Shown: in pieces, positions 43,276-43,557 of the stretch
Numbering within the stretch: position 1 is the first letter of the stretch
Layout: each line of letters starts with the position of its first letter
Assembly: GCF_044324875.1 (NCBI RefSeq)
Contig: NZ_CP172185.1
Length of the DNA: 64,000 nucleotides
DNA from: Escherichia coli
GTDB lineage: Bacteria; Pseudomonadota; Gammaproteobacteria; Enterobacterales; Enterobacteriaceae
Strand: one strand, 5' to 3'
Notes under the pieces: model-generated
What the model saw: the letters and a program-made list of their open reading frames with translations, nothing else
The model's database searches: none
Told to the model about the DNA's origin: nothing
Position numbers and translations under genes: made by a program

Positions 43276-43524
43276 TTAGTGAAAAAACCAGTCATCAGCA
43301 GTTTCCCAGACTTCCTGCAGCGTTTCCTGTATGAACTTCTGAGCGTTTTCTTTATCTACGGCTCTTAAAATGGTCAGTCCGTCATTACTGGCGGATTTTA
43401 CTATAACCTCCACATCGTCATATCGTTTTCTGATACGGCGAGACATTTCCTGTTGTAGAGCAGGTACAGAGCCTTTTGGCATTTTGCTGAATTTTTCTTT
43501 AGCGATACAGATCTCAACACGCAT
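43276..43524 (-). CDS. dinI: DinI-family protein
   Basis: 82 aa; MRVEICIAK...[16 protein letters not shown] parallels E. coli DinI; RBS AGGAGGGG. Confidence 0.85.
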
Positions 43525-43537
43525 AACCCCCTCCTGT

Positions 43538-43557
43538 AACTGTAGTTATGTACAGGT
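43538..43557 (-). promoter_or_regulatory. LexA (SOS) box upstream of dinI-like gene
   Basis: CTGT-N8-ACAG palindrome (AACTGTAGTTATGTACAGGT) matching the LexA consensus pattern. Confidence 0.55.

Follow-up and report, generated by a model that had tools for sequence, protein, structure and literature searches.

The closest described counterpart of the locus presented here lies in the Stx1 phage VT1-Sakai (Sp15, AP000400.1), in which the final gene ahead of the attachment site in yehV (mlrA) is H0001, annotated as 'DNA-damage-inducible protein I'. That record also marks the attachment site in yehV and a 'yehV' truncated protein', assigns TTGACA-N17-TAAAAA as the 'putative promoter of H0001 and H0002', and carries a misc_binding feature described as 'LexA protein, putative SOS box'. 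The same cassette occurs in YYZ-2008, JLK-2012 and many Stx1a-, Stx2a- and 2c-converting phages, and 114 phage records contain it, including many for Stx-converting phages. Salmonella provides experimental precedent, as Gifsy-1, -2 and -3 carry LexA-controlled dinI-antirepressor-irsA operons (Lemire et al. 2011, PMC3121763; Merida-Floriano et al. 2021, PMC8072944). Mitomycin C leads to accumulation of the DinI homologue of Gifsy-2 (PMC3121763), nalidixic acid raises transcripts of the Gifsy dinI homologues 4.6- to 23-fold (PMC8072944), and deletion of Gifsy dinI homologues has no measurable effect on prophage induction (PMC3121763).

The chromosomal dinI gene of E. coli K-12 (b1061; structures 1GHH and 7YWA) is an SOS gene in the context bssS-dinI-pyrC, with a 3'UTR of about 20 nt and a single LexA box close to its start codon. 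This box, ACCTGTATAAATAACCAGTA, has a Lewis-type heterology index (HI) of 6.24, and the TATAAA inside it is likely the -10 element of the gene. More than one LexA operator per promoter is also a described arrangement. Colicin genes carry two overlapping LexA boxes. Among Salmonella SOS promoters, lexA has two boxes, recN three and chromosomal dinI two (PMC8072944). On expression of the prophage dinI copy, EHEC locus tags led to no relevant literature, and the dinI treated in a bioRxiv paper on radioresistant O157 is the chromosomal gene rather than the prophage copy. Given the VT1-Sakai annotation and the Gifsy precedent for LexA control, the cassette described below is already known, and the only additions made here are an unannotated distal operator and a diverged 3'UTR.

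The dinI-like gene and its prophage setting

The window, by which we mean the whole 64-kb stretch of DNA that was analysed, is E. coli chromosome in which a lambdoid prophage, with head, tail and tail-fibre genes as well as cargo genes, is inserted in mlrA (yehV). Transcribed inward, the dinI-like gene stands last in the prophage, before attR. The features that define this end of the prophage are the following.

43276..43524, minus strand: dinI-like coding sequence, 82 aa, ATG start and TAA stop, intact in the list of open reading frames
43739..43759, no strand: attR core, a 21-bp direct repeat CACGCGCGTAACGTGACAGGG at the right prophage boundary inside mlrA, with an identical 21-mer at attL
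43741..43806, minus strand: 5' remnant of host mlrA (yehV), from sequence reading and a RefSeq pseudo-CDS, co-directional with the dinI-like gene

The original prediction of a dinI paralogue at 43276 is borne out by several matches. The 82-aa protein matches Pfam DinI (PF06183) over model positions 1-63 of 63 (E=2.4e-19, 69.9 bits against a cutoff of 24.2) and PHROG 189, 'RecA filament binding protein DinI' (E=2.3e-27), and its residues 1-81 align with the DinI structures 1ghh/7ywa (E=4.7e-13). It resembles K-12 DinI in family, length and acidic C-terminal helix, at 46% identity. Its score against the NCBIfam DinI equivalog NF007893 is 70.8 bits, under the cutoff of 111, whereas K-12 DinI scores 178.2; the gene is therefore better described as a DinI-like paralogue than as a DinI orthologue. 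RefSeq labels the identical sequence 'DinI-like family protein'. The chromosomal bssS-dinI-pyrC context is absent, and the gene sits instead between phage tail-fibre and cargo genes and the attR in mlrA.

The motif QE.WE.ADDWF of the C-terminal acidic helix is intact, and E67, E74 and D77 are invariant. The Asp/Glu-rich C-terminal amphipathic helix of DinI was reportedly identified by Voloshin and colleagues in 2001 as the part that contacts RecA. By analogy with DinI, the window protein would bind RecA filaments and modulate their coprotease activity.

The position at a prophage end, likewise predicted, is confirmed by the 21-bp att core, which recurs at attL, beside mlrA and int, in the closest genome (LH50-c). 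Beyond the mlrA remnant lie btsS and btsR. The prophage splits mlrA, a curli regulator gene, at a site shared with Stx1 phages. Its att core is a palindrome, and this sequence with a T run on the phage side forms a terminator-like hairpin at 43756..43736 (-), between the mlrA and dinI promoters. No Shiga-toxin genes were seen beside the window cassette.

The cassette shares with VT1-Sakai the last place before att in yehV (mlrA), the orientation, and about 81% DNA identity from the coding sequence through the att arm. The two proteins, in contrast, are only 65% identical behind a shared promoter, and the coding sequence is therefore mosaic. The dinI-like stretch is 100% identical to LH50-c (NZ_CP100500.1), and over the stretches compared the window is 97-100% identical to that strain. 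Colinearity with LH50-c is lacking, as about 7.1 kb of extra DNA lies between window position 1 and the dinI-like gene; a mosaic prophage may be one account of this offset. The repressor of the LH50-c prophage is of the CI type and has a Peptidase_S24 domain, a comparison to be read with the knowledge that the window is not colinear with that genome, and the prophage immunity region (CI/Cro) would fall just left of window position 1, outside the window. Among the cargo genes, a YadA-like (trimeric autotransporter) gene at 41095..42375 (+) contains an in-frame stop at 41926..41928 (…DETRT*TDSS…), which leaves ORFs of 277 and 144 aa where LH50-c is annotated with a single 370-aa CDS.

The promoter and its LexA operators

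Upstream of the coding sequence, a predicted sigma-70 promoter, TTGACA-N17-TAAAAA, is interleaved with two 20-nt LexA-type boxes.

43527..43534, minus strand: Shine-Dalgarno GGAGGGGG, read from the sequence, 2 nt before the ATG
43538..43557, no strand: proximal LexA box ACCTGTACATAACTACAGTT (minus-strand reading), with the CTGT-N8-ACAG core CTGTAGTTATGTACAG at 43540..43555, HI 9.50
43562..43567, minus strand: -10 hexamer TAAAAA, from a promoter scan and the VT1-Sakai annotation of the homologous promoter
43567..43586, no strand: distal LexA-type box CACTGGTTATCCACACAGCT (minus-strand reading), with a CTGG-N8-ACAG core at 43569..43584, HI 11.24
43585..43590, minus strand: -35 hexamer TTGACA, a perfect consensus, from the promoter scan (10/12 matches)

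The promoter scan also offered AAAAAT (43561..43566) as an alternative -10. The proximal box lies 13 nt before the start codon and begins 4 nt downstream of the -10, so that it is expected to cover the transcription start, predicted at around 43553 +/- 3. The distal box occupies the -35/-10 spacer and overlaps both hexamers. The two boxes therefore bracket the -10, with starts 29 bp apart (28-29 bp centre to centre), and both keep every CTG/CAG arm. Like other multi-operator SOS promoters, this one has more than one LexA operator, which should tighten repression; it differs from them in the 28-29 bp separation and in the bracketing of the -10. It also departs from K-12 dinI, with its single box, and from Gifsy, in which the DinI homologue likewise directly follows a LexA box close to the start codon and the one reported box is 19 bp from the ATG.

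A LexA operator was taken to be a 20-nt CTG-N10-CAG site with an HI below about 15, following the HI<15 rule (PMC11002266). The HI matrix was re-derived by regression on the 140 sequence/HI pairs in Table S1 of PMC12527982; the fit is exact (error about 1e-5), and the matrix, which is symmetric, reproduces recA at 4.31 and K-12 dinI at 6.24. The window contains 40 CTG-N10-CAG sites, among which the two promoter boxes score best and the next best has an HI of 14.8. Both satisfy the HI<15 rule and belong with cluster 0 of PSOSP Table S1, the 'binding' group, in which HI reaches 13.6 (PMC12527982). Simulated 64-kb sequences contained 0.005 sites with HI<=9.0 and 0.185 sites with HI<=12.5. In 437 kb of E. 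coli and phage DNA, every site with HI<=12.6 (102/102) precedes a dinI or dinI-like gene. By these comparisons, chance does not account for the two boxes.

These results confirm the earlier claim of a CTGT-N8-ACAG operator just upstream of the dinI-like gene and support the SOS control read from it, and the site scoring then proposed as a check ranks that operator best of the 40 sites in the 64 kb. The prediction was incomplete in its count, since it named one LexA box and overlooked the one at 43567..43586, and in its extent: 43557, where it ended the feature, is the exact end of the proximal box, and the promoter carries the feature on to 43590. The proximal 20-mer is identical to the SOS box annotated in AP000400.1. 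The distal box is also present in VT1-Sakai in nearly identical form (CACTGGTTATCCATACAGAT, HI 11.4) and is unannotated in that record.

The CTGT-N8-ACAG pattern occurs four times in the window against 0.76 expected, a count reached in 1/100 shuffles. The other three matches (25766..25781, 28426..28441 and 47990..48005) have G+C-rich spacers and were rejected as credible LexA sites. The match at 28426 has an HI of 17.6, and those at 25766 and 47990 rank below the 12 best candidate sites, the worst of which scores 18.6. All three lie inside coding sequence according to the LH50-c annotation, to which the offset changes along the window. The 5' side of the dinI terminator hairpin overlaps a weak CTG-N10-CAG site, GCCTGAGTATGTATACAGAG (43205..43224), which with an HI of 15.8 exceeds the threshold usually applied to binding and has probably arisen by chance. 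In the prophage part of the window, the dinI-like promoter is the sole credible place for a LexA site.

Conservation was examined in 47 related IMG/VR loci with upstream DNA (63-89% protein identity, 25 distinct promoter sequences). At least one LexA box is present in 45 of the 47 and both are present in 43. A box stands at the proximal position in 45/47 (HI 5.2-11.1) and at the distal position in 43/47 (HI 5.3-12.7), with a box-to-box spacing of 26, 28 or 29 bp. This variable 26-29 bp spacing gives no sign of fixed helical phasing and argues against phased cooperative binding. The relatives form at least three promoter families in which the CTG/CAG arms stay while the sequence varies both within the box spacers and upstream of the -35, a pattern that argues for selection on LexA binding. 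With HI values of 9.5 and 11.2, the window boxes are among the weakest of the family, in which the medians lie at 6.3 and 7.2. In phage JLK-2012 (locus L086, 2748-2830, minus strand) and in one further locus, L010, both boxes have been lost through point mutation, and LexA control is therefore dispensable in some lineages. The arm changes are CTG to TTG in the proximal box and CAG to CAA in the distal box, with the promoter hexamers intact, and the cassette at these two loci may be a naturally constitutive variant.

The relatives with the most similar promoters retain the AGGAGGG motif of the Shine-Dalgarno sequence. Copies about 96% identical occur in about 20 other E. coli genomes, and there the match ends at 43590-43591, the 5' edge of the -35. 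The edge of the promoter is therefore also the edge of a mobile cassette, and in some relatives unrelated DNA stands upstream of the same cassette.

The transcript end, the working model and its rivals

Beyond the stop codon, the minus strand carries the following features.

43209..43275, minus strand: 3'UTR of 67 nt, from the alignment with relatives, containing UUCUCUCC
43182..43208, minus strand: terminator hairpin from RNA folding, with a 9-bp stem GGCGUGUUC.../...AACACGCC and a 9-nt loop
43170..43181, minus strand: U-rich tail UUUCUGAUAUUU, after the terminator hairpin

The hairpin folds at -12.4 kcal/mol (z = -3.46; equally stable in 1/200 shuffles) and aligns with a covarying terminator hairpin of the relatives, and its U tail is interrupted. 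No minus-strand ORF of at least 20 aa lies between the dinI-like stop and the gene that follows, a convergent HTH gene at 42437..42892. With the terminator, the empty downstream strand and the convergent gene taken together, the dinI-like gene is therefore monocistronic. In VT1-Sakai, a conserved 3' element stands between dinI and the YkgJ-like ORF H0002, whereas in the window the UTR has diverged and a second ORF is absent. A candidate 8-mer pairing of the start-codon region with the loop of the terminator was dismissed, as by our estimate about one such pair is expected per 400-nt RNA.

The 3' element is an observation in its own right. About 105 nt long and composed of two hairpins, it directly follows the stop codon of most prophage dinI-like genes and is better conserved than the CDS (examples are L080:247-361, L085:1405-1518 on the minus strand and L088:4001-4094). 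Its second hairpin, the terminator, covaries, and its first has a near-invariant 33-nt loop. Of 5426 complete E. coli genomes, 5239 (about 97%) carry the same element between ecpE and ykgJ, immediately before ykgJ. It corresponds to no Rfam family and no annotation, and a full-text literature search by its sequence gave no match. The diverged window copy spans 43165..43278 (-); there the first hairpin has been lost and the 3'UTR retains only the terminator hairpin. Rfam gave no match in 42300..44100 at E<=1 and none in eight related loci at gathering score. Identity of Gifsy irsA with ykgJ was not confirmed from PMC3121763.

Our preferred interpretation is that the locus is a LexA-repressed, self-contained 'moron' cassette, running from promoter to terminator and encoding a DinI-like protein at the right end of a lambdoid prophage, and we place the probability of this reading at roughly 0.85. 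In such a model, host LexA bound at two operators would silence a strong sigma-70 promoter, TTGACA-N17-TAAAAA, with the distal operator in the -35/-10 spacer blocking RNA polymerase binding and the proximal operator, 4 nt after the -10, blocking the start site. DNA damage would generate RecA filaments, LexA would cleave itself, and the promoter would fire, yielding a monocistronic mRNA of about 350-380 nt that ends at the 43182..43208 hairpin, near 43175. The 82-aa product could then dock its acidic C-terminal helix on RecA filaments, as DinI does, and the bound protein would change how the filament promotes cleavage of UmuD, LexA and CI-type repressors. A prophage with a RecA-cleavable CI repressor would in this way gain an SOS-timed handle on RecA activity. 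The analysis shows the sequence features with their statistics, conservation and homology, whereas occupancy of the boxes by LexA, SOS induction of the window copy, attachment of its product to RecA and an influence on prophage induction are inferred.

The weak standing of the window boxes within their family, and the mutation of both operators in JLK-2012 and L010, would also fit decaying relics at which LexA is ineffective, with the gene expressed constitutively or by read-through from the promoter of the split mlrA, whose 5' remnant points the same way as the dinI-like gene. We regard this as unlikely. HI values of 9.5 and 11.2 lie among the LexA-binding sites of PSOSP Table S1 (cluster 0, HI up to 13.6). 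The CTG/CAG arms are all intact, and two sites together raise occupancy. Table entries at 9.2-12.8 presumably include the operators of ruvAB, cho, polB and dinB. As for read-through, the terminator-like hairpin and T run at 43756..43736 (-) separate the mlrA remnant from the dinI promoter. An arrangement of the Gifsy type, in which the operon comprises dinI, a small antirepressor and irsA and the box controls prophage induction through the antirepressor, receives almost no weight from us. The Gifsy order of LexA box, dinI homologue and antirepressor (PMC3121763) begins as the window cassette does, and the VT1-Sakai promoter is annotated for H0001 plus the downstream H0002; the absence of any minus-strand ORF of at least 20 aa after the dinI-like gene nevertheless largely refutes this reading. 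A stable terminator at 43182..43208 and then a convergent gene follow instead, and the loci of the closest protein relatives (L002) too have only a convergent tail-fibre gene downstream. Position differs as well, and repressor type may do so: the Gifsy genes, with antirepressor and irsA downstream, come after replication genes, whereas the window cassette is a single gene adjoining attR and not placed 1.3 kb after replication genes, and the Gifsy repressors are non-cleavable, whereas the closest relative prophage, in a genome with which the window is not colinear, has a cleavable CI/S24-type repressor that needs no antirepressor.

The remaining alternative places the function in the RNA, with the LexA-controlled mRNA giving rise to a DinR-like small RNA from its 3'UTR that possibly pairs with the ftsZ ribosome-binding site. 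In Klebsiella, DinR arises by processing of the dinI 3' end and represses ftsZ (PMC10907235), the 67-nt 3'UTR before the terminator compares with about 20 nt in K-12 dinI, and this 3'UTR is a diverged copy of an element that relatives conserve better than the CDS. It also contains UUCUCUCC, complementary over 8 nt to the E. coli ftsZ Shine-Dalgarno GGAGAGAA. Against these points, RNAduplex with the ftsZ leader gives -31.2 kcal/mol versus -25.2 +/- 4.4 kcal/mol in shuffles, a value matched by 8.9% of them and not significant, and the predicted duplex is unrealistically long-range. The examined relatives all lack the 8-mer UUCUCUCC, the window copy no longer has the first of the two conserved hairpins, the U tail is broken, and Rfam gives no match. 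A small-RNA function at this locus is accordingly very improbable in our judgement.

Meaning for SOS regulation in prophages

The discovery value of the cassette is small, as its SOS box has been in GenBank since VT1-Sakai and LexA control has been shown for Salmonella prophage dinI homologues. As Gifsy dinI deletions show no induction phenotype, any advantage that SOS-timed modulation of RecA gives the phage is hypothetical, and this locus offers no fresh approach to it. The small-RNA reading of the 3'UTR, if true, would link SOS sensing by the prophage to a cell-division block via ftsZ. The second operator implies that induction-threshold models of this promoter should use two sites. The two predicted LexA operators would control a cargo gene and not the lysis-lysogeny switch, and this dinI cassette could drive the result of callers such as PSOSP (PMC12527982), which assign 'SOS-dependent' prophages from the lowest HI among all prophage promoters.
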